Source of the DNA: Candidatus Omnitrophota bacterium
GTDB lineage: Bacteria > Omnitrophota > Gorgyraeia > Gygaellales > Profunditerraquicolaceae
DNA length: 64,000 nucleotides
Assembly: GCA_025453395.1 (NCBI GenBank)
Contig: JALOQK010000003.1
Coordinates: forward strand, 82,711-146,710
Direction of reading: 5' to 3'
Position 1 is the stretch's first letter. Every line of letters begins with the position of its first letter. Under the pieces are notes generated by a model. It had not been told where the DNA came from. It was given only the letters and a program-made list of their open reading frames with translations, and did not search any database. Of this stretch, positions 7,127 to 56,476 are shown in pieces. The translations under genes were made by a program, and so were the position numbers.

Positions 7127-7764
7127 TGGATGTTAAAAAAGAATTAAAAGATATTTATAAAAAGTTATTCCGTTGTTTCGGGCGGCAATATTGGTGGCCG
7201 GCAGAAAGCCCTTTTGAGGTGATGGTCGGCGCGATATTAACCCAGAATACAAACTGGCGCAATGTAGAGAAAGCCATCGGTAATCTTAAGCAGAATAAGG
7301 CTCTTGACCCATTCAAGATGCTGGCTATGCCGCATAAGAAATTAGCCTGCATGATCCGGCCCGCGGGTTACTATAATATTAAAACCAAGAGGCTCAAAGA
7401 GTTCTTAAAATTCTTTACCCGTATTTATAAAGCTGACTTTGGCCTGATGCGCGCGCAAAATACTGATGCGTTGCGCAAAGAACTCTTGGCGGTAAAAGGC
7501 ATTGGAGAAGAAACCGCTGACTCCATACTTCTTTACGCCTTAAGCAAGCCGGTGTTTGTGATTGATGCCTACACAAAGAGGCTTCTTGCGCGGCACAATT
7601 TTATTGCCGGCAGTTGCCTGTATCAGCAGGCGCAGAAAATATTTATGGAAAACCTTAATAAAGACGTGAAAATGTTTAACGAATACCATGCCTTGATAGT
7701 AAAATTGAACAAAGAATTTTGCTTGAAAAACAACCCGAGGTGCCGGATATGTCCATTAAAGTAA
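7126..7764 (+). CDS. Endonuclease III-like HhH-GPD DNA glycosylase with C-terminal 4-Cys [4Fe-4S] loop
   Basis: 'GAILTQNTNWRNVEKA' HhH-GPD block. C-terminal 'C..NNPRCRICPL' Cys cluster. Confidence 0.7.
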   Translation: MDVKKELKDIYKKLFRCFGRQYWWPAESPFEVMVGAILTQNTNWRNVEKAIGNLKQNKALDPFKMLAMPHKKLACMIRPAGYYNIKTKRLKEFLKFFTRIYKADFGLMRAQNTDALRKELLAVKGIGEETADSILLYALSKPVFVIDAYTKRLLARHNFIAGSCLYQQAQKIFMENLNKDVKMFNEYHALIVKLNKEFCLKNNPRCRICPLK

Positions 7765-9113
7765 GCGATTTTTTATACAGGGTTTCCAATACCTATTTTA
7801 TTCAATATCTCCAGGAGATATTCGATATAGACCTTGATGAGATGCGCGAGATCCAGAAGGATTTTCTCTCGCAGATGAAGCGCGGCCTGCAGGGCAAGGA
7901 AAGCCCGTTAAAAATGCTGGTTACTTATGCGCATATGCCCGATGGCAATGAAAGAGGCAGTTTCATCGCCCTGGATTTAGGCGGGACAAATTTACGTATT
8001 CTTTTAGTAGAACTGCAGGGTGCCGGAAAAGTAAGGATGGTGAAAGAAAAGCGGGTTACTATACATAAGAGGCATACCCGGGGCAAGGCGGCCAAGCTTT
8101 TTGGTTTTATCGCCCGCTCTATTGAAGATTTTATGCGCGAATGCCGCATTAAACCATACATGAAAATAAACATAGGTTTTACCTTTTCTTTTCCGGTGAA
8201 GCAATTGGCAATTAACAGGGGAAAATTAATGCATTGGACTAAAGACTTTGCCATTACTGAAGAAGAGGGGTTGGATGTGGTAGAGCTTTTGAATTGCGCC
8301 CTTACCAAGAGAAATTTGCATAATCTAAAAGTCGCGGCACTCTTAAATGACACGGTAGGCACCCTTGTGACAAGGGGATACTCAGAACATGATTGCGACG
8401 CAGGCATGATCCTTGGCACCGGGACCAACGCCTGTTATATAGAAAAGCCTTCTAATATTACCAAGGCGCATATTAAAGGCTTAAAGAAAAAGGGCATGAT
8501 TGTCAATATCGAGTGGGGAAATTTTGATAAACTGCGTTTGACTGAATATGACCGCGCTATTGATAAAGAGTCCGGGAATATCGGGATGCAGCTTTTGGAA
8601 AAAACCGTTTCCGGAAAATATTTAGGCGAGATCGTGCGCGTGACTTTAAAGGATCTGGCGCGCAGGAAATTTATTTTCAGCCTTTATCCGCAAAGCAGGC
8701 CCTTTGATAAGCCGGGCACATTTAATGCCGAGTATTTATCGCGCATAGAGGCGGATTCTTCTTCGGATTTAAAGCAGGTCGCCTCTGTTTTTAAAGAAAT
8801 AGGAGCTGCGCCAACGGTTCTTGCCGAAAGGCGCTTGGTGAAAAATACCTGTGGCATTATAAGCCGAAGAGCAGCACGGATCATAGCTTCTGTGTTAACA
8901 GCGGTGATCTTTAAAATGGACCCCTATTTTCTTAAGCGCCACGTGGTGGCTGTAGACGGAAGTTTATATGAAAAGCATCCGTTTTTCTCTGCACATATAC
9001 TTGAAGCCATGCGGGAATTATTAGGCAAGCGCGCAGATAAAATAACCCTGGAATTAACCAAGGATGGTTCGGGAAAAGGCGCGGCGATCGTGGCGGCAAT
9101 ATCCACAGGTTAA
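7749..9113 (+). CDS. Hexokinase (eukaryotic-type hexokinase family; Hexokinase_1/_2 domains)
   Basis: 'LDLGGTNLR' and 'GFTFSFPVKQ' are the hexokinase signature (LGFTFSFP). Start taken at internal Met 'MSIKVSD' to limit overlap with the upstream gene. Confidence 0.8.
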   Translation: MSIKVSDFLYRVSNTYFIQYLQEIFDIDLDEMREIQKDFLSQMKRGLQGKESPLKMLVTYAHMPDGNERGSFIALDLGGTNLRILLVELQGAGKVRMVKEKRVTIHKRHTRGKAAKLFGFIARSIEDFMRECRIKPYMKINIGFTFSFPVKQLAINRGKLMHWTKDFAITEEEGLDVVELLNCALTKRNLHNLKVAALLNDTVGTLVTRGYSEHDCDAGMILGTGTNACYIEKPSNITKAHIKGLKKKGMIVNIEWGNFDKLRLTEYDRAIDKESGNIGMQLLEKTVSGKYLGEIVRVTLKDLARRKFIFSLYPQSRPFDKPGTFNAEYLSRIEADSSSDLKQVASVFKEIGAAPTVLAERRLVKNTCGIISRRAARIIASVLTAVIFKMDPYFLKRHVVAVDGSLYEKHPFFSAHILEAMRELLGKRADKITLELTKDGSGKGAAIVAAISTG

Positions 9114-10253: not shown

Positions 10254-11219
10254 ATGGAAGGAATCATTATGCAGAATAAGCCGAAATTAACCAATCCCTG
10301 CCTTATAGCTTCTTGGCCGGGAATGGGGGAAGTGGCTTTTAAAACAGCAAGCTATCTTATCCAGAAATTAGGGGCGAAAGAGTTCGCTTCTTTAGACCCG
10401 CAAGAATTTTTCTATTTTACCGCAAGCGCGGTTAAAGACGGGATATTGGATGTTCCGGAATTGCCGTCGGGAAAATTCTATTTTTGGAATAATCCCGGCC
10501 GCGCGGGGGATATTGTTTTTTTCTTAAGTAACGCCCAGCCGGATTTAGCTTATGCGCAAAAATATTGCGGGCGGATTATCCGCATGGCAAAACTATTAAA
10601 AATTAAAACAGTTATCGGTATGGCTGCGATGCCATCCGCGATTGATCATACTCAAACCCCAAGCGTTCATTTTGCCGCCACCCATAAGGCAGTAGCCGAG
10701 CATCTGAAGAAATTTAAAATCAACCTTCTTAACCAGGGCCACATAAGCGGAATGAACGGCTTGTTCTTAGGGCTTGTCAAGGAGGCGGGGCTTAAGGGAT
10801 TTTGCCTGTTGGGAGAAATCCCGTTTTACACTATTCAAATAGAGAATCCGCGCGCCAACGCCGCGGTTATTGAGGCGCTCAATCAAGTCTTAAATCTTAA
10901 AATCGATACCGCAGCTCTTATAGACCAGGGCAGGCTTCTGGAGGATGAGATCAATAAGCTGATGGAATTTTTGAAGGTTTCTCCTTCCATGGATAATCCC
11001 ATCGGCGAAGATGATATTGAAAAGATAAAAAAAGCGCTGACCCAGCTTACCACCCTGCCGGTTTCAGTTAAAGAAAAGATCGAACAGCTTTTTATTTTGG
11101 CTAAAAGCGATCTGGATAAGGCGGGGGAACTTAAGAGCGAGCTTGACAAGTGGAATGTCTATAAAGAATACGAAGACAGGTTTCTGGATCTTTTCAAGAA
11201 AAAAGATCCAGATAATTAG
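10254..11219 (+). CDS. PAC2-family (proteasome-assembly-chaperone-2-like) protein with C-terminal coiled coil
   Basis: N-terminal 'NPCLIASWPGMGEVAFKTASYLIQKL' matches the PAC2 family N-terminal pattern. Confidence 0.5.
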   Translation: MEGIIMQNKPKLTNPCLIASWPGMGEVAFKTASYLIQKLGAKEFASLDPQEFFYFTASAVKDGILDVPELPSGKFYFWNNPGRAGDIVFFLSNAQPDLAYAQKYCGRIIRMAKLLKIKTVIGMAAMPSAIDHTQTPSVHFAATHKAVAEHLKKFKINLLNQGHISGMNGLFLGLVKEAGLKGFCLLGEIPFYTIQIENPRANAAVIEALNQVLNLKIDTAALIDQGRLLEDEINKLMEFLKVSPSMDNPIGEDDIEKIKKALTQLTTLPVSVKEKIEQLFILAKSDLDKAGELKSELDKWNVYKEYEDRFLDLFKKKDPDN

Positions 11220-15294: not shown

Positions 15295-17070
15295 ATGGAA
15301 GAAAGAGAATCTTTATACGAACGCGTTATTATGACAGCGATGGTGTTGTCGGCTTGCATTCTCTTGCGATCCGCCCATTCTTTTCTTATTGCTGCCGGAG
15401 CGGCAGTTTTTTTGGCAGGGAATATTTACCGCATTTTTTTTATTTCTTCAGATTCCCGCGGTTTAAGAAACCTTATTACCGCGCTGTGCATAGGGATAAT
15501 TTTATTGCAGGGGGCAGCTATTGTTAATTCCCACCTTCTCTATAAAGAGATCATCGGGATAGGCGCGCAGACTTCGGTATTATTAATGATGGTCTTAAGT
15601 TTTGCCTCATCTTCCCGCAAACATAAAGGATACATAGAGATATTAAGCCTTACGCTTATTCTTTGTTGCGGTATTTTTATACAAAAATACACAAATCTAG
15701 ACATATTTCTTTTAGGGGTTTATCTTTTGGCAGGATGCCTATTAATGCGCATAAGGTTTTATCGTATCTGGGGGGCAGAGGACAGTTCCGCCTCCGCCCT
15801 TTTTAATTCTTCCGGGTTTTTGGCGATGCTTTTTGTGCTATTGATTTCTTGCGCAGGATTATTTTTGACCGCTAAATTATCAGCAGGCAGATATTTACAT
15901 GGAGGGGTTTTTGCCGATATCGGTGAAGCGGGGGATATTATTGATCCCAAGGATTATTATAAGCTGCAGTCTGTTTTGCTGGATAAAATGCTTCCTCTTG
16001 TCTCTGAAGGTTATTACCCGAAGGACAAATTGTCGCTTTTAGGCATGCTAAATATTTTAGTGCGCGATGATGCCGTGCTTGTGGAAGTAGACCGCGCAGA
16101 GCAGGGGCTTGTTTCATTTTTGCGCACTCCCGGCTGGGGGGTGGAAGAAGACAAGAATCAGGCGCTTCAGATCTTGAAATCTTATATCCAGGAGAAAATA
16201 AGCAGAAAGATTTCCGCTTCGCAGGAACAGATAAACGAACTTTTTAAATTACAGGCGCCTTTTTCCCTGGGGCAGAGAATAAAGCAATCTTCTTTGGTGC
16301 AAGAATTAAAACAGGCTTCTTCGCTTTCCCAGGTTGAGAGTTTTCATAAGCAGGCGGAAGATTTCATAAATAAATCGTCTTTGTTTGCAGAGGCTGTTGA
16401 TAAGGCAGGCGAAGCCTTAAACGATATCAGGTCATGGAAGGAGTTTGAAATAAAGCACCAAACAAGATATGATGCAGATTTTGCCCCCGGAAAAGAACAG
16501 GCCCCAGGGCAAAATCCAGCTTCGGGCTTGTTGGAACCAACTGCGCCAGAGCCGGCTCAACCTTTGCCCATAGAAATACCTGCCCCGCAGGCCGGTACCG
16601 GATCAGTTTTAAGCCATGGCAGCCTTTGGGCGATTGCGCCTGTGTTCGCGCAGGCATTTTTTATTCTTTTGGCCGTTTTGCTCGCCTTAATATATATACT
16701 TGCGCAAATAGAAAGGTTAAACATCAAATCTCTTGCAGGCCAGCCCAGGCAGTTTATCTTGCGGCTTTATGCGCACTTGCGCCAGGCCTTATTTTACTCC
16801 AGGGCAGTTTACCAAGAAATCCTTCCGCCGCTTTATTACGCATCTAAAATAGAGCAGCAGATGGACTTAAAGGATAATTCTTTATTCCGCTTAAGCTCTA
16901 AATTTGAAGAAGCCAGATACAGCTCGCATATTTTAAGCCCTGAAGACGCAGAGGCCTGCCTTAGTGATTACAATTATTTTTTAAGGGCGTTCTTAAGGAA
17001 ATGTTCCATAAGCACCAAGCTTGTTTTTTATTGCAGGATGTTTTTCTCGCGCAAGCCGGTGTCCATATAA
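15295..17070 (+). CDS. Polytopic membrane protein, third member of the MoxR-DUF58 module. Has a Pro-rich linker and a possible DUF4129-like C-terminus.
   Basis: Multiple hydrophobic segments. 'APEPAQPLPIEIPAPQ' linker. Position immediately after the MoxR/DUF58 pair. Confidence 0.35.
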   Translation: MEERESLYERVIMTAMVLSACILLRSAHSFLIAAGAAVFLAGNIYRIFFISSDSRGLRNLITALCIGIILLQGAAIVNSHLLYKEIIGIGAQTSVLLMMVLSFASSSRKHKGYIEILSLTLILCCGIFIQKYTNLDIFLLGVYLLAGCLLMRIRFYRIWGAEDSSASALFNSSGFLAMLFVLLISCAGLFLTAKLSAGRYLHGGVFADIGEAGDIIDPKDYYKLQSVLLDKMLPLVSEGYYPKDKLSLLGMLNILVRDDAVLVEVDRAEQGLVSFLRTPGWGVEEDKNQALQILKSYIQEKISRKISASQEQINELFKLQAPFSLGQRIKQSSLVQELKQASSLSQVESFHKQAEDFINKSSLFAEAVDKAGEALNDIRSWKEFEIKHQTRYDADFAPGKEQAPGQNPASGLLEPTAPEPAQPLPIEIPAPQAGTGSVLSHGSLWAIAPVFAQAFFILLAVLLALIYILAQIERLNIKSLAGQPRQFILRLYAHLRQALFYSRAVYQEILPPLYYASKIEQQMDLKDNSLFRLSSKFEEARYSSHILSPEDAEACLSDYNYFLRAFLRKCSISTKLVFYCRMFFSRKPVSI

Positions 17071-21421: not shown

Positions 21422-22047
21422 AAAAGCCTCCGGAAATATCAATTAGCCGTTTAAGCCTGTATCTGAGGTTTTTGGATGATTACCTGCGCCAAAAAGGCCT
21501 GAATGCCACAATTAGCTCTGAAGAATTAGCTCAACAACTTGACCTTAATCCGCATCAAATCCGCAAAGATCTTTCATACTTTGGTAAATTCGGCTCTCCC
21601 GGAGTGGGGTATCGGGCCCAAGAGTTAAAGTCCAGGGTTTCTGAGATTTTGGGCTTACGCAGGAAATGGAATTTATGTATTTGCGGAAGCGGGAATCTGG
21701 GGGCAGCCTTAGCCGCTTATGAAGGGTTTAAGAAAATGAATTTACACATCGTAGCTTTATTTGACAATGATCCGCTTAAAATAGGAAAAAAGTTTCAAGG
21801 GATCGATGTCTATAGCACTAAAGGCATGGCTTCGGTGTTAGCTTGGCTTAAAGTGGATATTGCCATTATTGCTGTGCCCCAAGAAGCGGCCCAGGCGCTT
21901 GCCGATAAATTAGCGGACGCAGGGGTTAAGGCTATACTTAACTTTGCCCCGGTTTCTCTCTCATCTTCCAAAGAAATAAAAATAAGAAACATGGATGTGG
22001 CGGCAGAATTGCTTAACCTCACCTATTTTTTATCCACCGCAAGATAA
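21418..22047 (+). CDS. rex: Redox-sensing transcriptional repressor Rex
   Basis: 'ISRLSLYLRFL' winged-helix block. 'ICGSGNLGAAL' NADH-binding Rossmann. Start at 'MKKPPE', overlapping the GT2 stop by ATGA. Confidence 0.85.
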   Translation: MKKPPEISISRLSLYLRFLDDYLRQKGLNATISSEELAQQLDLNPHQIRKDLSYFGKFGSPGVGYRAQELKSRVSEILGLRRKWNLCICGSGNLGAALAAYEGFKKMNLHIVALFDNDPLKIGKKFQGIDVYSTKGMASVLAWLKVDIAIIAVPQEAAQALADKLADAGVKAILNFAPVSLSSSKEIKIRNMDVAAELLNLTYFLSTAR

Positions 22048-22182
22048 AATATCATTTCTCGACGCTGATTGCCCGTAGAAATTCCTTGACAAAAGCCGCC
22101 CATTGTGATAAAAAATAAATAAGAAGCAAATAAACTTACAGAGAAAGAAAAGACAAAACTTGGAAAAAATATAGAAGTTTAA

Positions 22183-22216
22183 AGAAAAGGGCTAAGAAGG
22201 GGCCCTTATTTTTTTT
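22183..22216 (+). terminator. Rho-independent-terminator-like hairpin (AAGGGC-N9-GCCCTT) followed by a T8 tract. Either the rex terminator or an attenuator in the leader of the ATP-grasp/KamA operon.
   Basis: Stem 22187-22192 / 22202-22207, then 'atttttttt'. A TTGACA hexamer at 22086 lies upstream. Confidence 0.5.
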
Positions 22217-22229
22217 GTTTTACTTATAA

Positions 22230-23219
22230 ATGAAAACAGTTGGTTTGACCTACGATTTAAAAACAGAATATAAATTCAAAGAAAACGACCCGCCTGACGC
22301 AAACGCCGAGTTTGACCATCCGTCTACCATCGAGGTTATCGCAAACGCCATTGAATCTCAAGGTTTTAAGGTAAAAAAAATCGGAAACGCCTATAATGTT
22401 ATGGAAGGTATGGGCAAATTAGGCGTGGATATCGTGTTTAATATTTCTGAAGGCATTTCCGGAAGAAACCGTGAATCACAGGTTCCTCTTTTGCTGGAAA
22501 TGTCCGGGGTGCCTTTTGTGGGATCGGATGCCTTAACTTTAGGCTTAACCTTGGATAAGGTCATGGCCAAAAAAATATTTATCTCGGAGAAAATACCTAC
22601 CCCGAAATTCTTTGAAATAAAATCCCTGGATGCTTTAGTGGATTCAGACCACCTGCATTATCCCTTGATCGTTAAACCTCGCTTTGAAGGCTCGTCCAAA
22701 GGATTAACCGAAAGCTCGCGTGTGGAAAATATGGAGGAGCTTAAGAAACAAGCAGATCAAATTATAAATATGTATAAGCAGCCTGCTCTTATTGAAGAAT
22801 TTATTGTCGGCCAGGAATTTACAGTTGCCCTGGTGGGAAATGACCCGGTTGAAGTTTTGCCTCCGGTGCAGATCAAGATAGACGGAAAATTAAAACTCAA
22901 TGAGAAATTTTATACCTTTTCGCGGATCACCTCTGATCGTTTGGAATATATTTGCCCGGCTAAGATAAGCGCAGAATTAAGAGATAAGATATCGCAGATA
23001 GCTTTAAAGGTATATAATGCGGTTGAATGCTGTGATTTCGGCAGGGTGGATTTTAGGGTCACAAACGACGGGCATCCTTATGTCTTAGAGATCAATCCTT
23101 TACCTTCGCTTTCCACGGAAGATGTTTTTCAAATAGTAGCCAGAGAAACAGGTATATCTTATGAACAGATTATCGGCAAGATTTTAAACGCGGCCCTAAA
23201 AAGGCACAACCTGAATTAA
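22230..23219 (+). CDS. ATP-grasp ligase, D-Ala-D-Ala-ligase-like (paralogue 1)
   Basis: 'LIVKPRFEGSSKG', 'EEFIVGQEFTV', 'YVLEINPLPSLS' are ATP-grasp/Ddl-family blocks. No Gly-rich Ddl N-terminus. Confidence 0.7.
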   Translation: MKTVGLTYDLKTEYKFKENDPPDANAEFDHPSTIEVIANAIESQGFKVKKIGNAYNVMEGMGKLGVDIVFNISEGISGRNRESQVPLLLEMSGVPFVGSDALTLGLTLDKVMAKKIFISEKIPTPKFFEIKSLDALVDSDHLHYPLIVKPRFEGSSKGLTESSRVENMEELKKQADQIINMYKQPALIEEFIVGQEFTVALVGNDPVEVLPPVQIKIDGKLKLNEKFYTFSRITSDRLEYICPAKISAELRDKISQIALKVYNAVECCDFGRVDFRVTNDGHPYVLEINPLPSLSTEDVFQIVARETGISYEQIIGKILNAALKRHNLN

Positions 23220-23221
23220 AA

Positions 23222-24232
23222 ATGAAAGTCGCCCTGACTTATAATTTAAAGAAAAAAGACGAGACCAAGCCCATAGATTATTTCTCCGAGTTTGATACTC
23301 AGGATACAATTAATGCTATAGTAGGCGCCCTCCAATCCCGCGGGCATGATGTAACCCCGGTTGAAGCAGAGTATGAAAATCTTTTTAGCTTCTTCAAAAA
23401 TAATAAGGTTGATATGGTTTTTAATGTTGCCGAAGGAAAATCCGGGAAGATGCGCGAGTCAGAGATCCCGGCGCTTTTGGAGTATTTACGAATTCCGCAC
23501 ACAGGCTCCAATACTTTTTCTCTGGCCATTGCCTTAAATAAGGCGGTTACCAAGAAAATATTAAGCGCGGAGAATATTCCTACTCCGCGTTATCAGCTTT
23601 TTAGCAAGACAGACGAAGAGCTGAATCCAGAACTTAAGTTTCCTTTGATTGTAAAGCCCAATTGCGAAGGCTCTGCCAAAGGGATTAATAAAACAAGCGT
23701 TGTGCATGATCAGGGTGAATTATCCCGGGAAGTATACAGAGTAATTTCTGTTTATCATCAGGAAGCGTTAGTAGAGGAATTTATCAATGGCAGAGAATTT
23801 ACCGTCGGGATATTAGAAGATGATAAAACCACTATTTTGCCGGTGATGGAAATAGATTTTGCAAGCTGTGAAAAAAGCGGGGAATATTTTTATTCCTGGA
23901 GGATGAAAGAATACCAGGGCAATGCTGAGTTAGGCCTTACTCCCACATTTCATTGCCCGGCGGCCCTTGATAAAGAAACCGAAAGAAAAATAAAAGAAGT
24001 GGCTCTCAGGACGCATCATGCCATTGGATGTTTTGATATTTCGCGTACTGATATACGCTTGAGCGAAGATAATATTCCTTATGTCTTGGAAATCAATCCT
24101 TTGCCGGGTTTATCCCCCAGAGATTCCAATTTCCCCTTGATGGCGTATGCCAATGGCATGCGTTATGAAGATCTAATTGAGGCGATCCTTAAGAGCGCCT
24201 GCAAAAGAAAGGAAAAAATTGAGCCAGCTTGA
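23222..24232 (+). CDS. ATP-grasp ligase, D-Ala-D-Ala-ligase-like (paralogue 2, tandem duplicate)
   Basis: Same block order as paralogue 1: 'LTYNLK', 'LIVKPNCEGSAKG', 'EEFINGREFTV', 'YVLEINPLPGLS'. Confidence 0.7.
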   Translation: MKVALTYNLKKKDETKPIDYFSEFDTQDTINAIVGALQSRGHDVTPVEAEYENLFSFFKNNKVDMVFNVAEGKSGKMRESEIPALLEYLRIPHTGSNTFSLAIALNKAVTKKILSAENIPTPRYQLFSKTDEELNPELKFPLIVKPNCEGSAKGINKTSVVHDQGELSREVYRVISVYHQEALVEEFINGREFTVGILEDDKTTILPVMEIDFASCEKSGEYFYSWRMKEYQGNAELGLTPTFHCPAALDKETERKIKEVALRTHHAIGCFDISRTDIRLSEDNIPYVLEINPLPGLSPRDSNFPLMAYANGMRYEDLIEAILKSACKRKEKIEPA

Positions 24233-25424
24233 TAACTCCCAAGGAAACAGCGCTTTAGAGACACAAAAGCAGCAGGTGGAATTTTCTCCTTCGATACGAA
24301 CCTCCAGAAGATCCAGAGATTATCAGCAGATTGGGATCTACAAAGATGTCAATCCGTTAGATTGGGAGGATTGGCATTGGCAGATCAAGAACAGGGTTTG
24401 CACCAGAGATGTCCTTTCGCAGATAATCCGCTTGACAGCTGATGAGGAAAAAGGGATTGAAAAAGCTAAGGGTAGATTATCCATGGCGATTACTCCTTAT
24501 TGGGCGGCGCTTTTGGATGCAGATGACCCGCAGTGCCCGATTAGAAGGCAGGCTGTGCCGGTAAAAGACGAGTCAGCTGTTTCCGCGCATGAAATGACTG
24601 ATCCTTGCGCCGAAGACAGGGATTCTCCGGCGCCGCATTTGGTGCATCGTTATCCCGACAGGGCGCTTTTATTGGCAACTGATCATTGCGCGATGTACTG
24701 CCGCCACTGCACCCGCAGGCGTTTAGTGGGAGACCATGTTGAAGAAAAAACCAATGGAGTGGACAAATTTGACGCGGCAATCGAATATTTAAGCCAGAAT
24801 AAGAAAATAAGGGATGTGCTTATTTCCGGAGGAGACCCGCTTTTCTTGGAAGATGAGCAGTTAGAATCTTTGATCCAAAGGATCCGGGCCATTTCGCATA
24901 TTGAATTTTTGCGCATTGGAACGCGCATTCCGGTTACCTTGCCGCAACGCATTACCGAAAATCTGGTGAATATGCTTAAGAAATATTCGCCCATTTGGAT
25001 GAGCATACACTTTAACCATCCCAAAGAAATTACCAAGCGTTGCAAGATCGCCTGCGATATGCTGGCGGATTCAGGTATTCCTTTGGGAAGTCAGTCTGTG
25101 CTTTTAAAAGGCATCAATGACCGGCCGTATATCATGAGAAAATTGGTGCATGAATTACTGCAAGTTCGAGTTAGGCCGTATTATATTTACCAGTGCGATC
25201 CGGTTAAAGGCACCCAGCATTTCCGCACTCCGGTTGCCACGGGCATTAACATCATGGAAAAACTGCGCGGGCATACTTCAGGTTACGCGGTTCCTACTTA
25301 TGTAATTGATGGTCCTGGAGGAGGCGGTAAGATCCCGGTGGGCCCTAATTACATTCTTTCCCAGGCTAAGGGAAAATATGTGTTACGCAATTACAAGGGC
25401 AAGATTTATACCTATCTAGAGTAA
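24177..25424 (+). CDS. Lysine 2,3-aminomutase family radical SAM/PLP enzyme (KamA/EpmB/AblA-like)
   Basis: 'CAMYCRHCTRRR' = CxxxCxxC of the KamA family. 'ITPYWAALLD..PIRRQAVP' N-terminal KamA block. 'DWHWQIKN'. The annotated ORF start overlaps the previous gene by about 55 nt, so the true start may lie downstream (non-ATG). Confidence 0.8.
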   Translation: MRRSLRAPAKERKKLSQLDNSQGNSALETQKQQVEFSPSIRTSRRSRDYQQIGIYKDVNPLDWEDWHWQIKNRVCTRDVLSQIIRLTADEEKGIEKAKGRLSMAITPYWAALLDADDPQCPIRRQAVPVKDESAVSAHEMTDPCAEDRDSPAPHLVHRYPDRALLLATDHCAMYCRHCTRRRLVGDHVEEKTNGVDKFDAAIEYLSQNKKIRDVLISGGDPLFLEDEQLESLIQRIRAISHIEFLRIGTRIPVTLPQRITENLVNMLKKYSPIWMSIHFNHPKEITKRCKIACDMLADSGIPLGSQSVLLKGINDRPYIMRKLVHELLQVRVRPYYIYQCDPVKGTQHFRTPVATGINIMEKLRGHTSGYAVPTYVIDGPGGGGKIPVGPNYILSQAKGKYVLRNYKGKIYTYLE

Positions 25425-25445
25425 AACAGGGGATGGTTTTATCCC

Positions 25446-25474
25446 TTGACCCGCCTTTTTGTGTATTATATAAT
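25446..25474 (+). promoter_or_regulatory. Sigma70-type promoter TTGACC-N17-TATAAT, followed by two hairpins in the roughly 140-nt leader of the EF-G-like gene
   Basis: Read directly. The -35 hexamer is at 25446-25451 and the -10 hexamer at 25469-25474. Leader hairpins are ACTCCGCG/CGCGGAGT (25544-25565) and AAATAAACAATA/TATTGTTTATTT (25566-25602), just before the RBS 'aggagc'. Confidence 0.5.
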
Positions 25475-25616
25475 TAATAAACCTTAGGAATATCCATAAA
25501 AATATATAGTCTATTTATCTTTTGATAATATACTAACCCGAAGACTCCGCGCAAAATCGCGGAGTTAAATAAACAATAAGCGCCAGTGGTATTGTTTATT
25601 TAAGGAGCTAAAATAT

Positions 25617-27557
25617 ATGGATACCAAGAACAAGCGCAATTTTATTCTTTTGGGCCATGCCCAGTCAGGCAAGACTTCCTTGGCAGAAAGCATGCTCTTT
25701 TTTGCTCATGCTACAACCCGCAAAGGCGCAATCAACGAAGGCAATACTGTTAGTGATTATAGCTTTGACGAAATTGAAAGAAAAAGTTCAATTAACGCCG
25801 GCTTTTTATATTGTGATTATAAGGGTTGCCGCATCCAGATGGTGGATGCTCCGGGTTACGCGGATTTTTTTGGCGAACCTCTATCATCTGCGCGCGCAGT
25901 AGACAGCGCCATAATCGTGGTAGATGCCGCAAGCGGCATAGAAGTAGGCACGGAAAAAGCTTGGGATTTGGCAGAAGAGCAAAATCTGCCGGTAATGTTC
26001 TTTCTAAATAAAATAGACAAGGAAGGCGCCTCCGCCCAAAGAGTGCTGGCAGATTTAAAATCGCGCTTTTCTAAAGCCTGCGTGATTATTGAGACCTTGG
26101 AAGACCCGGATTTAATGGAGGCCATTGCCGAAAGCGATGATACTTTATTGGCAACCTATTTGGACACCCTGAAGCTTTCTGTTGACCAGATCAAAAACGG
26201 CCTGAAGCAGGCAGTTGTTAAGCGCAAACTTTTTCCGGTTTTAAGCGGCTCGGCGGTTACGGATAAAAGATTGCAGGATTTATTGGAGGATATCATAGAA
26301 TATATGCCTAATCCTCTTGAGCGCGCGCCTGTCTTGGCAGAAGATAAAGAAGTAAGCTTAACGCATGATGGGCCCTTCAGCGCCTTTGTCTTTAAGACCA
26401 TAGTTGACCCTTATGTTGGCCAGCTTACTTTATTAAGGGTTTTTTCCGGATCCCTGTCTTCCAATGGCACCTTTTATAATGCCACCAAGAAGCTCAAAGA
26501 GAAATTCGGCAGTATCTATATTTTGCAAGGAAAAGAACAGCGCGCGGTTGAGGCGGCTTCTTGCGGAGATATTGTGGCCATTGCCAAATTAAAAGACACC
26601 GTAACCGGCGATTCTTTAGCCAATGAAAAATCCCCGGTGTTGTTTGAGCCTCTTGTTTTTCCGGAGCCTGCGATTTCAGCTTCGGTGAAGCCTAAATCCC
26701 GCGCCGATGAGGATAAAATTTCCCTGGCCTTGCATAAGTTAGCCGCTGAAGACCCGACCTTTCATTTTACTCATGATCCCCAGAGTAAAGAGCTTATCAT
26801 TTCCGGGATGGGAGATTTGCATTTAGCGATTATGGTAGGAAGAATAAAAAAGCGCTTTAATGTGGAAGTAGAGCTTGGCACTCCCAAAGTAAGTTACAAA
26901 GAAACTATTACTAAGAAAATCAAGGTGCAGGGAAAATTCAAACGCCAGTCTGGCGGCCGCGGGCAATACGGCGATGTCTGGATTGAAATTGAGCCTAAGT
27001 TAAGAGGAGAAGGTTTTGAATTCGTAGATAAGATTTTTGGAGGTGCCATCCCAAGAAATTATATTCCTTCTGCGGAAAAAGGTATTTTGCAGGCTTGCTC
27101 TGAAGGCGCGGTTGCGGGTTATCCGATTGTGGATTTAAAAGTAACCCTGGTGGATGGTTCGTATCACGACGTAGATTCTTCGGATATGGCCTTTCAGATT
27201 GCCGGAGCCATGGCCTTAAGAAAGGCAGTGGCCGAGGCTGGGCCGGTTCTTCTTGAGCCGGTGATGCAGGTAGATATTTCTATACCTGAAGATTGCCTTG
27301 GCGGGGTAAGCGGAGACATAAATTCCCGCAGAGGCCACATGGCTGGTATGGAAGTAAAAGGTAAGACCCAAGTGTTAAAAGCCTCAATACCGCTTGCGGA
27401 AATGTTTACTTACGCTAATGACTTAAGGTCTTTAACCGGCGGCAGGGGAAGTTACACTATGCGTTTTTCGCATTATGCCGAGGTTCCGCATAAGATTGCC
27501 TCCACGATTATAAGCCACTATCAGGCTTCGCGTAAACAGGACGCGGAAAATCAGTAG
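25617..27557 (+). CDS. Elongation factor G-like translational GTPase (EF-G paralogue, 646 aa)
   Basis: G1 'GHAQSGKTSL', 'DAPGYADF' G3, domain IV/V blocks 'GRGQYGDVWIEIEP', 'GYPIVDLKVTLVDGSYHDVDSS'. Shorter than canonical FusA. Confidence 0.8.
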   Translation: MDTKNKRNFILLGHAQSGKTSLAESMLFFAHATTRKGAINEGNTVSDYSFDEIERKSSINAGFLYCDYKGCRIQMVDAPGYADFFGEPLSSARAVDSAIIVVDAASGIEVGTEKAWDLAEEQNLPVMFFLNKIDKEGASAQRVLADLKSRFSKACVIIETLEDPDLMEAIAESDDTLLATYLDTLKLSVDQIKNGLKQAVVKRKLFPVLSGSAVTDKRLQDLLEDIIEYMPNPLERAPVLAEDKEVSLTHDGPFSAFVFKTIVDPYVGQLTLLRVFSGSLSSNGTFYNATKKLKEKFGSIYILQGKEQRAVEAASCGDIVAIAKLKDTVTGDSLANEKSPVLFEPLVFPEPAISASVKPKSRADEDKISLALHKLAAEDPTFHFTHDPQSKELIISGMGDLHLAIMVGRIKKRFNVEVELGTPKVSYKETITKKIKVQGKFKRQSGGRGQYGDVWIEIEPKLRGEGFEFVDKIFGGAIPRNYIPSAEKGILQACSEGAVAGYPIVDLKVTLVDGSYHDVDSSDMAFQIAGAMALRKAVAEAGPVLLEPVMQVDISIPEDCLGGVSGDINSRRGHMAGMEVKGKTQVLKASIPLAEMFTYANDLRSLTGGRGSYTMRFSHYAEVPHKIASTIISHYQASRKQDAENQ

Positions 27558-27674: not shown

Positions 27675-28379
27675 ATGAAGATCGGTATTTTTGGTATTGA
27701 TGGTTTTTCTCAAGGCAAAGCCAATATTGTTGACCAGAGAGTAAAAACTTTGGAGCAGATGTTTAAGTCGGCAAAACAAGTTTTTATACAGGCGGATATT
27801 TTAACTCAGGAAGATAAACTTAAAGAGGCAGATGGTATAATCTCCCTTGAAGAGTCACGCTTGGTTTTAGTGATGACAGACTTGGAATTTGTGGAATTAA
27901 GGCTTTCACGCGGAGCCGAAGCATTAGAAAAGGAATTACTTTTGCGCGCCAAAGACTGCCTTTCCAAAGAAAATATGCTTTCAACTTTGGAATTAACTGA
28001 AGAAGAGAAAAAGATTTCCGCAGCCTTTCCGTTTTTGACTAATAAACCCATATTTTTCTGTAAGCCAGAGGATGCGCAAGAAAAAGAAAAACTTTTATTT
28101 AACGCCTACTACGGGTTTGGATATATTTCCTTTTTTACCGCCGGAGATAAAGACGCGCACGCCTGGTCAATAAAAAAAGGCGCCAATGCCTACGAATCAG
28201 CCGGATGTATTCATTCGGATATCCAGAAAGGTTTTATCCGCGCCGAGGTCTTAAGCTACGATGACCTCATAAAAGATGGCGGGCTTTCTCAGGCCAGGCA
28301 AAATAATCATATCCGCCTTGAGAACAAAGAATATATTGTTCAGGACGGTGACTATATAGTGTTTAAGTGTAATAAATAA
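27675..28379 (+). CDS. Truncated YchF/Obg-like protein. It keeps the YchF helical segment and the C-terminal TGS/DUF933 domain but has a degenerate P-loop and lacks most of the G domain.
   Basis: The C-terminus 'AWSIKKGANAYESAGCIHSDIQKGFIRAEVLSYDDLI...IRLENKEYIVQDGDYIVFK' closely parallels the YchF C-terminus. 'LTEEEKKISAAFPFLTNKP' parallels the YchF helical domain. The N-terminal 'GIFGIDGFSQGKAN' is not a proper GxxxxGK[ST]. Confidence 0.55.
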   Translation: MKIGIFGIDGFSQGKANIVDQRVKTLEQMFKSAKQVFIQADILTQEDKLKEADGIISLEESRLVLVMTDLEFVELRLSRGAEALEKELLLRAKDCLSKENMLSTLELTEEEKKISAAFPFLTNKPIFFCKPEDAQEKEKLLFNAYYGFGYISFFTAGDKDAHAWSIKKGANAYESAGCIHSDIQKGFIRAEVLSYDDLIKDGGLSQARQNNHIRLENKEYIVQDGDYIVFKCNK

Positions 28380-30017: not shown

Positions 30018-31337
30018 ATGATTTACCCGGAAGCAATCAAATATTTGGAATCGTTCATTAATTACGAGAAAATCCCGTATTATTCTTACAAGGATTCTGT
30101 AAAGTTAGAGCGCATCAAAGATTTTCTTTCCCTTATTGGAAATCCCCAAGAAAGCTTGCGCGTAATCCATGTTGCCGGCAGTAAGGGCAAGGGTTCTACA
30201 AGCGCTTTTATCGCCCAGATATTAAAAGAAGCGGGATTTAAAACCGGATTATACACTTCTCCGCACCTGTCAGACTTCAGGGAAAGAATTCGTGTCTTCA
30301 GCTGTCAGCCTTCAGCTATCAGCCTTCAGCCAAAAGAATTTGAAGGCATGATTGAGAAAAAAGATTTAACGCGCTTAGTTAAAAAACTAAGGCCTAAAAT
30401 AGAACAATACAATAGGATTTTAAAATATGGCCCATTATCATTCTTTGAGGCCTACACAGCGCTAGCTTTTGTTTATTTTAAAGAAAAAAAAGTAGATTTC
30501 GCGGTTTTAGAGACTGGCATGGGCGGAAGGTTAGACGCAACAAATACTACTAATGCCCAAGTTTGTGTGATTACCCCTATTAGCTATGAGCATACGGACA
30601 AATTAGGTAAAACTCTAAGGCAAATAGCAAGAGAAAAGGCCGGAATAATCAAATCCGAAATCCGAAATCCGAAATCCGAAAGTGCAAAACCAATTGTGAT
30701 TTGCGCGCCGCAGGAAAAAGAGGCGTTAGATGTTATTAGAAAAAGATGTATAGATGTTGGCGCAAAGATTTACGAAATAAAGAAAAATAAATTAACGCAG
30801 TTTAAAACTCAACTTTTAGGGTTTCATCAGCAGATAAACGCGAATGTTGCAAAAGAAGCGGTTAAGGCCTTGTCTTATTTTGGAGCAAAAATAAGCGATA
30901 GTAAAATTCGAAAAGGCCTCGCAGGCACTTTTTGGCCGGGAAGATGCGAGGTGATTTCTCAAAAGCCATTTATTGTTTTAGACGGTGCGCAGAATAAAGC
31001 TTCGGCAAAAGCATTAAAAGAAGCTATCAGGGCTAATTTCCGCTATAATAAGTTAATCTTGGTTTTAGGGATTTCACAGGATAAGGATATAAGGGGGATT
31101 TGCGCGCAATTGCGCACTTTAGCGGGTACAGTTATTTTAACTAAATCCAGTAATCCGCGCGCCACAGAACCAAAAGTCTTAGCGCGATATTTTCCTAAGA
31201 AAGATACGCGGCAAACTTCCGGCGTAAAAGAAGCCTTGTGTTTAGCTAAAGAAGAGGCGAAGGAAAAAGATTTAATATTGGTGACTGGGTCGCTGTTTGT
31301 GGTCGGAGAAGCCAGGGAAGATATATTAAGTTATTAA
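30018..31337 (+). CDS. folC: Folylpolyglutamate synthase / dihydrofolate synthase
   Basis: 'HVAGSKGKGST' P-loop, 'TSPHL'. Mur-ligase fold blocks. Contains two in-frame heptamer tandem-repeat tracts. Confidence 0.85.
   Translation: MIYPEAIKYLESFINYEKIPYYSYKDSVKLERIKDFLSLIGNPQESLRVIHVAGSKGKGSTSAFIAQILKEAGFKTGLYTSPHLSDFRERIRVFSCQPSAISLQPKEFEGMIEKKDLTRLVKKLRPKIEQYNRILKYGPLSFFEAYTALAFVYFKEKKVDFAVLETGMGGRLDATNTTNAQVCVITPISYEHTDKLGKTLRQIAREKAGIIKSEIRNPKSESAKPIVICAPQEKEALDVIRKRCIDVGAKIYEIKKNKLTQFKTQLLGFHQQINANVAKEAVKALSYFGAKISDSKIRKGLAGTFWPGRCEVISQKPFIVLDGAQNKASAKALKEAIRANFRYNKLILVLGISQDKDIRGICAQLRTLAGTVILTKSSNPRATEPKVLARYFPKKDTRQTSGVKEALCLAKEEAKEKDLILVTGSLFVVGEAREDILSY
30299..30333 (+). repeat. Heptanucleotide tandem repeat (cagcNNt x5) inside folC
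   Basis: cagctgt cagcctt cagctat cagcctt cagccaa, encoding 'SCQPSAISLQP'. Confidence 0.7.
30654..30681 (+). repeat. Heptanucleotide tandem repeat (tccgaaa x4) inside folC
   Basis: tccgaaa x4, read directly. Encodes 'EIRNPKSES', an apparent insertion relative to canonical FolC. Confidence 0.8.
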
Positions 31338-53187: not shown

Positions 53188-53317
53188 TAAAGTAAATCTA
53201 ACACAGCAGCCCTAAGATGTAAAGGGAATTTAGGATTGTAAGGGAAATGTAAAATCAGCTTAAAAGGTATTGCAATTGTCTTTGGAAAGAGGTATATTTT
53301 GTATAAGGAGAATTATC

Positions 53318-56300
53318 ATGGAAAAGATTACCGGGAATAAAGGGATGGTTCTTATTGTTTCTCTTTTCTTGGCCATTGTAATCGCTACCATGGCTGGCAT
53401 ATTATATTTTCGCGCGGTTAACGAATCGCGTTTGTCAGTAATAAGCGACGCGGCGCTTCAGGCTTTTTACGAAGCAGAGGCGGGACTGGCTTTTGCTTAT
53501 GCCGCGGAAAAAAAGAGCAATTTTACCTGGTTTACCCACGCAGATAAGATTACAAAGGCAAGCGCAGTTTCGGTTCCTTCTGGCGTTCCGGGCGCAATTG
53601 ATAACTCAAGCGGTTGTTATGTTGTATCAGGGCGTAATTTTAAAGTCAAAACTTTCCCAGAGAAAAAAGGTACTGTTGAAACCGGAATTGTGGTTGTGCT
53701 GTCACAGGCTACTATTAACGGGGTTACCCGTACTTTAGAGCATCGCATTGGCCAGAAATCCGCTTATCAATATTTTTTCTTCTTTCCTGAAGACCACACC
53801 TTTGATACCGCCACTTACGACGGACGCAACTTTGGCGGGCTTCATGTGAATGGCGATATCAACCTTATCAACCATCCGACCTTTGCTTTCTTAACTGAAT
53901 TAAGCAGCGGTTCAAATACTTCCCATAAAGGCTATATCCGAAGGCCGCTTTTAGAGGCCTTTACAGCTTTAAGCGGCAACAAGGATTATAATATTTCAGC
54001 TTCTAGCGTCCAAGGGCTTCCATGGCAGCTTTATACAAATATTAACTATCGCACTTCAAACGGAGATATCGGTTCAGGAACATATACTACTTTTAAGATT
54101 GGCGATATCAACAGCCCCGCAACAATAAATATCCCAGAATATATGGGCGGGCAGTGGTCATTTGATAAATATACCAAGGCGGGTTCGCCCACAACTTATA
54201 ATATTACGGAAACCTCTTTGAAGAATGCCGGATTGCGAGAGATTACTTCTTCCGCAGGAGATGTTTCCTTGTTTGATAATAACAAATCTATCAATATCAA
54301 CTTTGGGGGTTCACCAGAAAGCCTTACTGAGAAAGAAATGTTTAAGAGGATATACAACCTTCCGGATGATCAGCAAACCAGTTATTGGAGCCAATATTGG
54401 GATCAGTGGAAAGTCAATCATAATTCCGATTATTCAGCTTATCATACTTCTGGAGTGTTAACAGCGGGAGATGATTGGAAAAGAAGATTATTTTGGGCAA
54501 CTTATGACTGGAAAGATTACAATTCTGACGGTATCCCTTACGGAATAAACCGGGAGTGGTGGGAAGATTTAAGTTATGGAGACGATTATTACGATTATGG
54601 CCCTAATGGCACATCCCCGGCCTGCGTGGTAGACCACGACACAGGATTGTCATTAGATAAATATTTCTTGAACACAGAAGAACAGGGTACGCAATGGAAA
54701 AATTTGTTAGATGCAAACAACCTTGATGAGGCCGCAGATAATAAAACCCTTGTTTTAGACAGAAGCCAGGGCGGCAAAGAAATCAATGCCGGGGATATCA
54801 TTAGCAATTATGATACTTCAAGTTATAGTGTTTTAGAAGGCCAAGCGCGCAACAGCGGGATTTATATGGGGGTTAAGACTGATCAGGCCTATAAGGATTG
54901 GCAGATTTTGGCTGTGACTGCCAGCATGAAGGCAAATTCTGCGCTTGATAAAGCGAATGCCAAATTTTCTGAATGCACGGTAAAATATAATCAGACCGCA
55001 TGTTCTTCAACTTCCGGAGGCTCAACATCAGCAGAAGCCGTTGCTTGTTGGTCAGATTATAGCGGCCTATACCAAAAATATACTCAAGCTTATGGCGAAT
55101 ACACGCAAGTTATGCAGGATAAGCCTCCTACTGTTTGGTGGGAAGGTAAAAATTCAAATCTTCTTAAGGATTGCGTTTCTGAAACTCCGTTTTATAACGC
55201 GCAAAACCCTGCCCGGGGCAGCGATGGGAAATATTCTCCCAGCCATATCCTTACCATTGATTTAGCTAAGCTTAAAAGCAATATTGACCAGAAAGGTTCG
55301 GGTTTTAACGGGATCATCTATATAGATTTGGACGCTTACCAATGGCAAGAGAATACTGTGGATGACGGAACTAAAGTTTCAGATGAAAAGAGCGCTATTG
55401 GAGTAATGTTTGTTAATGGAGAGCGCCTTCCGGATCAGGGTTTAAGCATAGTTACTAAGCATAATGTTTACGTTAAGGGGGATTTTAACCTTGACCCGGA
55501 TGGAGATTCTAGCCGTAACCGCGCTGCCGACCCCTCAAATGTTTTAAATACCGTTGCGAATAATAAAGGCCTTGATGTTGATGATTTTAAATGGCGCCCA
55601 GCGGAAATAATCACCTACAGGCAGGTATACTTTCTATCGAATGATTTCAATCTGCCAAAAACCATGCCTTTATTGGATACACAATATGGGCAATTTTACG
55701 ATGAATATTATAATAAGACTCGAGCGGATGTGGTTACGCATCCTTTATATGGCGCACCGGATACTGCCACAAGCGCTTCTGCCAGTTGGATGCCTGCGTA
55801 TAATAGCTCGGATTCTTCATGGGGGAAGATAAATGATTGGTTTTCTCTTACCGGGATAACCCCCCCAGCTTCATGGGATGTAAACTGGCTTGATGGCAAT
55901 CAGCTGAACCAGATGGATTCCACCCCGGATTTGTTAACTGGCGTAAACGGGAAACAATACCCCAAATGGGATAATTACAGCTGGAGTGATTCTTATGTCT
56001 ATAAATTAGACGATGGCTCAGGCGGGACAACATATATCATGCGTCAGGATTTAAAGTATCAACTTTATAGCAAAGTACTGAGTGCCTATAGAAATCAATA
56101 CGCTTACAATGTTAGTAACTCGCCCGCGGCATACCAGATGGTTGATGTTGTGACCCGCCCGGAAAGCTATATTTACAATACGGCAGTGATTACTCCCTAT
56201 GCCCCAGAGGGGTATAGTTTAGAGCGCTGGAACAATAAGAATCGCGTGATTAACGGCGCGTTTATTCAGCTGCCTTCAGGTATGCAACTTCCCGTTCCCG

Positions 56301-56476
56301 TTGAATCTTATAAGGATACTGGTTCCGGAGCAATAAGGTTTAACCAGCCCAAGAAAACATTTAATTATGAGTCTCGCTTTGGTAAAAACGGGGATCCTTC
56401 TGATCAGCCCCACGCAAGGTTATTATTTGGCATGGATTCAACATGGAGGGAAATAAATAATGCCGCGTTTCAATAA
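53318..56476 (+). CDS. Giant PilX-N-domain minor-pilin-like protein (about 1050 aa), a putative pilus tip adhesin
   Basis: N-terminal 'KGMVLIVSLFLAIVIATMAGILYFRAVNESRLSVISDAALQAFYEAEAGLAFAYA' matches the PilX_N pattern (hydrophobic helix + 'QAFyaAEAGl'). The remainder is N/Y/W/D/S/T-rich with no TM. Confidence 0.55.
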   Translation: MEKITGNKGMVLIVSLFLAIVIATMAGILYFRAVNESRLSVISDAALQAFYEAEAGLAFAYAAEKKSNFTWFTHADKITKASAVSVPSGVPGAIDNSSGCYVVSGRNFKVKTFPEKKGTVETGIVVVLSQATINGVTRTLEHRIGQKSAYQYFFFFPEDHTFDTATYDGRNFGGLHVNGDINLINHPTFAFLTELSSGSNTSHKGYIRRPLLEAFTALSGNKDYNISASSVQGLPWQLYTNINYRTSNGDIGSGTYTTFKIGDINSPATINIPEYMGGQWSFDKYTKAGSPTTYNITETSLKNAGLREITSSAGDVSLFDNNKSININFGGSPESLTEKEMFKRIYNLPDDQQTSYWSQYWDQWKVNHNSDYSAYHTSGVLTAGDDWKRRLFWATYDWKDYNSDGIPYGINREWWEDLSYGDDYYDYGPNGTSPACVVDHDTGLSLDKYFLNTEEQGTQWKNLLDANNLDEAADNKTLVLDRSQGGKEINAGDIISNYDTSSYSVLEGQARNSGIYMGVKTDQAYKDWQILAVTASMKANSALDKANAKFSECTVKYNQTACSSTSGGSTSAEAVACWSDYSGLYQKYTQAYGEYTQVMQDKPPTVWWEGKNSNLLKDCVSETPFYNAQNPARGSDGKYSPSHILTIDLAKLKSNIDQKGSGFNGIIYIDLDAYQWQENTVDDGTKVSDEKSAIGVMFVNGERLPDQGLSIVTKHNVYVKGDFNLDPDGDSSRNRAADPSNVLNTVANNKGLDVDDFKWRPAEIITYRQVYFLSNDFNLPKTMPLLDTQYGQFYDEYYNKTRADVVTHPLYGAPDTATSASASWMPAYNSSDSSWGKINDWFSLTGITPPASWDVNWLDGNQLNQMDSTPDLLTGVNGKQYPKWDNYSWSDSYVYKLDDGSGGTTYIMRQDLKYQLYSKVLSAYRNQYAYNVSNSPAAYQMVDVVTRPESYIYNTAVITPYAPEGYSLERWNNKNRVINGAFIQLPSGMQLPVPVESYKDTGSGAIRFNQPKKTFNYESRFGKNGDPSDQPHARLLFGMDSTWREINNAAFQ

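Follow-up and report, generated by a model that had tools for sequence, protein, structure and literature searches.

In a 64,000-nucleotide stretch of a Candidatus Omnitrophota bacterium genome (contig JALOQK010000003.1, positions 82,711 to 146,710 of the forward strand; hereafter the window), three open reading frames (ORFs) on the same strand fill positions 22230-25424 and encode two paralogous ATP-grasp ligases resembling D-alanine-D-alanine ligase (Ddl), which we call AG1 and AG2, and a radical SAM enzyme of the KamA family. These enzymes recur together in other phyla, both as neighboring genes and as fusion proteins, and we consider it probable that KamA supplies beta-lysine with which the ligase pair, one enzyme of an A-type and one of a B-type, makes a small beta-lysine peptide or conjugate. 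More tentatively, the cassette could represent an unrecognised beta-lysyl metabolite module present in at least eight phyla, whose product is N-acetylated in most of them and which, in Omnitrophota, perhaps serves a core function under the control of a new cis-regulatory leader responsive to lysine, beta-lysine, or its own product. The operon in the window comprises:

22230-23219, + strand: AG1, A-type Ddl-like ATP-grasp ligase, 329 amino acids (family searches, AlphaFold2 model, tree)
23222-24232, + strand: AG2, B-type Ddl-like ATP-grasp ligase and paralogue of AG1, 336 amino acids (family searches, residue mapping, tree)
24276-25424, + strand: KamA, short-form lysine 2,3-aminomutase (KamA/AblA-like, with radical SAM and pyridoxal phosphate (PLP) cofactors), 382 amino acids, in an ORF open from 24177
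25430-25474, + strand: operon end, a weak hairpin (25430-25445) and then the promoter-like site (25446-25474) of a gene for an elongation factor G (EF-G)-like protein

The preliminary description of this DNA, made from the letters alone, had read the three ORFs as two tandem Ddl-like ATP-grasp enzymes followed by a KamA-type radical SAM enzyme, and both the ORF coordinates and the Pfam families agree with it: Dala_Dala_lig_C matches AG1 at 6e-39 and AG2 at 1e-36, and the third ORF (24177-25424) matches Radical_SAM and LAM_C. AG1 and AG2 share 40% identity and are separated by a gap of 2 nt, and AG1 matches, at 100% identity, a protein from a metagenome-assembled genome labelled 'Candidatus Omnitrophica bacterium' at NCBI. 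The true start of KamA is probably GTG 24276 and not TTG 24177, since the latter would overlap AG2 by 56 nt and KamA homologues elsewhere start 50-110 nt past AG2. This compact spacing, together with the promoter-like site of the next gene, which is strong (11/12 consensus matches), gives AG1-AG2-KamA the appearance of a self-contained operon.

KamA aligns over 363 residues (478 bits) with the lysine 2,3-aminomutase (LAM) of Clostridium subterminale (PDB 2A5H) and keeps, all identical to 2A5H in the alignment, the CxxxCxxC motif and residues R134, D293, D330, and K337 (LAM numbering). Arg134 binds the substrate carboxylate and the PLP-binding Lys337 sits in a GGGGK motif, while Asp293 and Asp330, which bind the epsilon-amine of lysine, are replaced in the glutamate enzyme. 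Because these specificity residues are kept in the window enzyme, and the Asp pair and GGGGK motif are preserved in nearly all cassette-linked KamAs, the expected substrate is free L-lysine and the expected product beta-lysine. Among NCBIfam models, KamA passes that of the KamA subfamily (TIGR00238, 352 bits against a cut-off of 199) and falls just under the cut-off of the AblA-type lysine 2,3-aminomutase (TIGR03820, 517.6 against 525.4), yet it does not reach the EpmB equivalog level (250.6 against 369.3). It therefore does not group with EpmB, and efp was found neither in the window nor in about 170 related loci, so that the preliminary description was right to set this arrangement apart from the lysylation of elongation factor P (EF-P). 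KamA is a short form that stops at LAM residue 367 (of 416) and so lacks the C-terminal segment of some 50 residues, which we take to carry the zinc-site cysteines; it also has Arg in place of Cys268. A short C-terminus is common to the KamAs of related cassettes elsewhere.

The two ligases combine a Ddl fold with an altered substrate site. The AlphaFold2 model of AG1 (predicted local distance difference test score 95.9) superposes on Ddl structures with a template modelling (TM) score of about 0.8 at 20-26% identity, and structure comparison found no solved structure closer to it than Ddl. Both proteins nonetheless score under every curated Ddl and Van ligase cut-off in NCBIfam, including those of NF002378 (243 bits; AG1 183.3, AG2 203.1) and TIGR01205 (245.65 bits; AG1 155.2, AG2 173.4), and a B-type ligase from Desulfovibrio mangrovi reaches 76 bits against the Ddl model. 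We mapped the residues of Escherichia coli DdlB, with numbering verified against 2DLN, onto about 260 members of the family. The ATP-binding, magnesium-binding, and catalytic set (K97, K144, E180, E187, R255, D257, E270, and N272) is kept in all four subfamilies. At the substrate site, H63 is replaced by a Glu that is invariant across the family (E74 in AG1) and E68 by Arg; Y216 is lost, with Arg, Ile, or Thr in AG1 depending on the alignment and Glu in AG2; S281 is replaced by Asp in AG1 (D298); and L282 by Val or Asn (Asn in AG2). S150, a D-Ala-binding residue of DdlB, is retained. An insertion of about 14 residues (consensus YDL...P.D..AE.D) replaces the short GGxS loop ahead of helix 1, and in AG1 the model shows the omega-loop lid with high confidence, the corresponding region being longer in AG2. 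The retained lid of the model fits a small substrate, and the extra acidic residues (Glu for H63 and, in AG1, Asp for S281) would suit a cationic, lysine-like one.

A dcw-type murC/murF-ddl-ftsQ arrangement was not seen among the annotated genes flanking the operon, the only gene of the window with a Mur ligase domain (30018-31337) is FolC-like, and two contigs from the search (L099 and L106) encode, 5 kb away from the cassette, a canonical Ddl with 40% identity to DdlB, which means that the housekeeping role there does not fall to the cassette ligases. The sub-threshold scores, the changed D-Ala-site residues, the lack of a dcw context among the annotated flanking genes, and the coexistence with a canonical Ddl bear out the expectation of the preliminary description that these ATP-grasp enzymes are not true Ddl; its suggestion that the product might be a cell wall modifier finds no support in the gene context.

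The association of the three genes is conserved throughout Omnitrophota. When one genome per species was scanned, with retrieval through similarity to AG1, 80 loci were obtained, all from Omnitrophota, and together with a separate look-up this provided 47 loci that were well flanked (at least 2.5 kb on both sides). KamA is present in all 47 and both ligases in 44, always in the order AG1-AG2-KamA, a few loci having AG1-KamA only. Many metagenome-assembled genomes (MAGs) from the scan, among them the sources of L016, L005, and L006, are labelled 'uncultured Planctomycetales' or Margulisiibacteriota; their AG1 proteins are 73-77% identical to that of the window and their synteny is that of Omnitrophota, and these labels are probably wrong or outdated.

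Loci of other phyla came from look-ups of clusters and contigs and from scanning metagenomes with a distant family member as seed. They span 31-71% GC, with Elusimicrobiota, Acidobacteriota, Verrucomicrobiae, Thermodesulfobacteriota, Anaerolineales, Geminicoccaceae, and Eisenbacteria among the named sources. The dominant arrangement outside Omnitrophota is KamA-AGa-AGb-GNAT, with two ligases, AGa and AGb, and an acetyltransferase of the GNAT family: among 19 well-flanked metagenome loci from other lineages, KamA occurs in 18, KamA with two ligases in 17, and these with a GNAT in 15. At E<1e-30, a profile-free exhaustive search yielded 1,015 cluster representatives. Of the 150 best, about 45 are tandem AG-AG proteins of 500-790 amino acids in which both halves retain the family motifs. 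Fusions also join the other parts, as AG-KamA (P0202), KamA-AG, and AG-GNAT, and in one locus (L089) the four domains are distributed over two genes, KamA-AG and then AG-GNAT. Given the counts in Omnitrophota (47/47 and 44/47) and among the metagenome loci (18/19), together with the gene fusions, the linkage of the two ligases with KamA is beyond chance. The neighborhood proposed in the preliminary description is thus strongly conserved, also in other phyla, and is reinforced by fusion proteins.

In a neighbor-joining tree, the cassette ligases form one clade, apart from E. coli DdlB and from the canonical Ddl of L099. Within it, AG1, AGa, and the C-terminal halves of the fusions examined constitute an A-type clade, whereas the B-type sequences (AG2, AGb, and the N-terminal fusion halves) fall outside it as successive branches and do not form a single clade. 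Because the tree places A-type and B-type partners across lineages, the two-ligase design looks ancestral.

One further AG-KamA fusion (L087:5022-9258) carries Gln in place of D293 in its KamA part and adjoins genes for a GntC/capreomycidine-synthase-like (GntC/VioD-like) PLP enzyme and a RaSEA-like radical SAM protein. It probably belongs to a different natural-product pathway acting on another amino acid, and we set it aside as evidence on lysine chemistry.

The accessory genes of the other phyla offer additional clues. The cassette GNATs are proteins of 150-180 amino acids with weak RimI matches, and none of them matches the AblB model. One (from L171) matches PDB 2R7H at 1e-44, a structural-genomics orphan named 'putative D-alanine N-acetyltransferase of GNAT family'; a protein 99% identical to 2R7H (P0404) lies within a sigma54 activator-KamA-AG-AG-GNAT cluster, and we suspect that the name of 2R7H was guessed from neighboring genes mis-annotated as 'Ddl'. 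The same cluster is found in an Oleidesulfovibrio-like contig (L174:4874-10531) and in the cultured Desulfovibrio mangrovi (CP104208.1; L173:4857-12386), where it is followed by a gene encoding a GNAT fused to a histone deacetylase (HDAC)-family domain. This GNAT-HDAC gene recurs in seven metagenome loci. A Geminicoccaceae MAG carries an extra SET-domain gene in its cassette, and in a Thermodesulfobacteriota-type arrangement a sigma54 two-component system sits between the A-type ligase and KamA-AGb. Two contigs of distant lineages, L088 (8001-11432; 53% GC) and L175 (676-3811; 69% GC), encode an AG-AG fusion followed by a Peptidase_S58 aminopeptidase of the DmpA/BapA type, after a 24-nt gap in L088 and with a stop-start overlap in L175; the two peptidases are 43% identical, and KamA is absent from both contigs. 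Such a couple looks like a synthetase and a hydrolase acting on a peptide whose N-terminal residue is unusual, and the linkage with the aminopeptidase is consistent with a peptide product. Accessory genes of these kinds, the GNAT, deacetylase, SET-domain, and S58 genes included, are absent from the window and from 83 Omnitrophota loci.

These elements suggest the following pathway. KamA, using its radical SAM and PLP chemistry, would convert free L-lysine into beta-lysine. AG1 and AG2 would then each activate a carboxylate as acyl-phosphate and join it to an amine, forming two ATP-dependent amide bonds, and the two proteins probably act as a heterodimer, by analogy with the Ddl homodimer. What results would be a soluble compound of small size, a peptide or amino-acid conjugate that contains beta-lysine; in most other phyla the 2R7H-type GNAT would N-acetylate it, and in some lineages the deacetylase could reverse the acetylation. 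As to its role, comparison with N-epsilon-acetyl-beta-lysine and with N-acetylglutaminylglutamine amide (NAGGN), an N-acetylated dipeptide, would make us guess first at a solute that protects against stress or osmotic imbalance, or else at a metabolite rich in nitrogen.

Several observations weigh against this proposal. The equivalent of Glu15 of Ddl cannot be aligned by profile methods; its counterpart is probably Glu27, in a segment that lies outside the profile alignment. Since a GNAT is missing from the Omnitrophota operon, this operon may yield another product than the four-gene cassette does. Presence in all 47 well-flanked Omnitrophota loci, a set retrieved through similarity to AG1, together with housekeeping neighbors, suits a core function as well as it does an accessory solute, and hints at a core role of the operon in this phylum. 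Some members of the family have no KamA nearby (L088, L090, and L175), and beta-lysine is therefore not obligatory for the wider family. Finally, no transporter or osmotic-stress gene is consistently linked to the cassette.

Among the alternatives, the one that best survives is that the ligases attach beta-lysine to a macromolecule, either a protein (EF-P, a ribosomal protein, or a carrier in the style of RimK, LysX, or TTL) or a peptidoglycan precursor, in the style of D-aspartate ligase. ATP-grasp enzymes acting on proteins or on UDP-MurNAc-peptides exist and provide a precedent; the RimI-like GNAT, the GNAT-HDAC fusion, and the SET partners of some lineages belong to families known chiefly for protein-lysine chemistry; and the Omnitrophota operon, which is present in every well-flanked locus retrieved, adjoins translation genes, one for an EF-G-like protein and one for a protein with the YchF C-terminal domain (YchF-C). 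We nevertheless hold such a target to be unlikely. Neither in the window nor in the roughly 170 loci is the cassette linked to efp, an epmA-like gene, a carrier-protein gene, or a mur gene, the flanking genes are unrelated outside Omnitrophota, and KamA is LAM/AblA-like rather than EpmB-like. The lid loop is kept in the AG1 model, and the characterised enzymes of the Ddl subfamily all act, to our knowledge, on small molecules. It is this retained lid, along with the S58 aminopeptidase partner, that leads us to favor a small peptide over a macromolecular target.

It is more doubtful still that the ligase pair polymerises beta-lysine into an oligomer or polymer, a cationic storage or antimicrobial compound, comparable to cyanophycin or epsilon-poly-lysine, for which one enzyme would prime and the other elongate. 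The paralogous ligases do differ at acceptor-site residues, the acidic pocket residues would suit a polycationic chain, and the S58 family to which the AG-AG-linked aminopeptidase belongs includes beta-peptide hydrolases, as might be expected of a synthesis/degradation pair. The cassettes, however, have no conserved exporter, primer-binding domain, or cyanophycinase-like partner, processivity is not known for closed active sites of the Ddl type, and the terminal GNAT of most cassettes suggests a defined small product.

The remaining explanations fare poorly. That AG1 and AG2 are ordinary or specialised peptidoglycan D-Ala-D-X ligases, whose adjacency to KamA is meaningless, seems highly improbable: Ddl tops the matches in every library, public annotations read D-alanine-D-alanine ligase, and the genome encodes peptidoglycan-related proteins including an L,D-transpeptidase, but the scores lie under all Ddl cut-offs, H63, Y216, and S281/L282 are not conserved, the linkage with KamA spans phyla and is fixed by fusions, and L099 and L106 have their own canonical Ddl near the cassette. 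We give equally little credence to a plain AblA/AblB pathway for N-epsilon-acetyl-beta-lysine with unrelated ligases alongside, for although KamA is nearly an AblA equivalog and most cassettes outside Omnitrophota have a GNAT after the ligases, this GNAT is a short 2R7H/RimI-like protein that does not match AblB, the Omnitrophota operon has none, and some genomes encode the ligases as fusions with KamA and with the GNAT. An anti-phage defence system was also considered and rejected, there being no PADLOC match for AG1, AG2, KamA, the GNAT, or the GNAT-HDAC protein.

Comparison with known systems helps to place a cassette that probably makes a small beta-lysine product. With Ddl, and also with the VanA-type D-Ala-D-Lac and D-Ala-D-Ser ligases, AG1 and AG2 have in common the three-domain ATP-grasp fold, the ATP, magnesium, and catalytic residues, and the expected acyl-phosphate mechanism, and the paired or fused cassette genes mirror the dimeric logic of Ddl; they differ in their low identity (20-28%), altered substrate residues, loop insertion, and, in Omnitrophota, partnership with KamA. 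The AblA/AblB pathway of methanogens and some bacteria likewise has an AblA-like aminomutase supplying beta-lysine and, as in the cassettes of other phyla, an acetyltransferase, but the cassette adds two ATP-grasp ligases, its GNAT (not encoded in the window) is not AblB, and its KamA lacks the C-terminal residues and Cys268. EpmA/EpmB resembles it in following a KamA-family aminomutase with an ATP-dependent beta-lysine ligase; that ligase is, however, a paralogue of aminoacyl-tRNA synthetases, whereas those of the cassette are ATP-grasp enzymes with no efp or epmA linkage.

The closest functional analogy known to us is Ngg, of the Ngg/AsnO pathway that reportedly makes the osmolyte NAGGN. Ngg is a GNAT/ATP-grasp fusion, comparable to the AG-GNAT fusion of L089, that produces an N-acetylated dipeptide without ribosomes or non-ribosomal peptide synthetases (NRPSs); it differs from the cassette in its ATP-grasp subfamily, its glutamine substrate, the lack of a radical SAM enzyme, and its amidotransferase partner. 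BacD/YwfE, RizA, TabS, BL00235, and the mycosporine enzymes MysC/MysD are stand-alone ATP-grasp enzymes, sometimes two in series, that form defined peptide bonds, of dipeptides or oligopeptides, within small-molecule pathways. The similarity of AG1 and AG2 to BL00235 is remote (E about 1e-7), and we know of no L-amino-acid ligase or MysD-type ligase that uses beta-lysine or is paired with KamA. The cassette combines elements of known kinds, ATP-grasp amino-acid ligases and beta-lysine pathways, and is not categorically new. No model in NCBIfam, PADLOC, or Rfam describes KamA with two ligases, and a search of the open-access literature found no paper that connects KamA or beta-lysine to ligases of the ATP-grasp or Ddl-like kind; within these sources, the claim that no described pathway combines such parts stands.

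Upstream of AG1, the operon possesses a leader with three recognisable parts:

22086-22114, + strand: putative operon promoter read by eye, TTGACA, 17 nt, and a TG-extended TAAAAA
22156-22174, + strand: conserved leader core, AAACTTGGAAAAAATATAG in the window; family consensus AAATTGRAAAA, often followed by nTAGG
22187-22216, + strand: terminator-like hairpin (22187-22207) and run of eight T (22209-22216), a candidate attenuator

The promoter-like site, missed by a consensus scan because its final base is not T, aligns with a -10-like ATAnAATAT block conserved upstream of AG1 elsewhere in Omnitrophota, where in most loci this block is followed by an often-present GGAGG, the AAATTGRAAAA core (22160-22169 in the window), a GC hairpin, and a T-run (for instance, in the alignment, L033:5887-6003 and L014:5885-6003). 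In an alignment of 27 leaders the A-TTG-A-A columns do not vary, conservation of the hairpin stem includes compensatory changes at 7 of 8 pairs, and in 1.6 Mb of fetched sequence the motif and hairpin occur together only upstream of AG1. In the window the T-run ends 13 nt before the ATG of AG1, an interval that is too short for a promoter and lacks a Shine-Dalgarno sequence, and this geometry implies that the hairpin must be read through. In some loci, 100-220 nt separate the element from AG1, so it could instead be a small independent transcript. The element may act as an attenuator or as a riboswitch-like leader, or it may be a small RNA. Rfam gave no covariance-model match at E<=1 in 21800-25800, and RNAalifold predicted no structure other than the terminator hairpin; a stem between U-tract and A-tract is possible. 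Two other modes of regulation were rejected. Leader-peptide attenuation by a TTG-led mini-ORF with Lys codons is disfavored relative to an RNA or DNA motif, as the nucleotides are conserved and the length and frame are not. Control by Rex, for which a gene lies upstream, was discarded because TTGTGAAnnnnTTCACAA matches are no commoner than chance and none falls in the intergenic region.

Downstream of the operon, the EF-G-like protein (25617-27557) has 646 amino acids, fewer than a typical EF-G, and its G-domain match is split in two, the second stretch running from profile position 211 onward; the protein could be a paralogue of EF-G. The next gene (27675-28379) encodes a 234-amino-acid protein with the YchF C-terminal domain only (residues 151-233) and no GTPase domain; its N-terminal 150 residues are unannotated, and homologues 39-70% identical to it lie downstream of many Omnitrophota operons. 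Elsewhere in the window we observed a hexokinase (7719-9113) matching Hexokinase_1 (1e-63) and Hexokinase_2 (1e-71), Pfam families that are mostly eukaryotic and unusual for a bacterium, an isolated PAC2 (proteasome-assembly-chaperone-like) family protein (10254-11219), a stand-alone LPG_synthase_C domain protein (1242-2153; the C-terminal domain of MprF, an aminoacyl-phosphatidylglycerol synthase), and two large ORFs with no Pfam match at 1e-5 (53270-56476, 1068 amino acids, and 15295-17070, 591 amino acids).

Thousands of public proteins of this ligase family are annotated as D-alanine-D-alanine ligase, and the evidence gathered here points instead to a different, lysine-derived pathway. The question is directly testable, since the cassette is present in cultivable and genetically tractable Desulfovibrio, although the window derives from a nanobacterial phylum without cultured members. 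The operons coupling AG-AG with S58 peptidases could, in addition, indicate a natural substrate of the DmpA/BapA-family beta-aminopeptidases, for which we know of none. The only fates of beta-lysine known to us are acetylation, EF-P modification, fermentation, and incorporation into NRPS natural products; if ATP-grasp enzymes provide another, beta-lysine metabolism would gain a further branch and, probably, a new class of metabolites.

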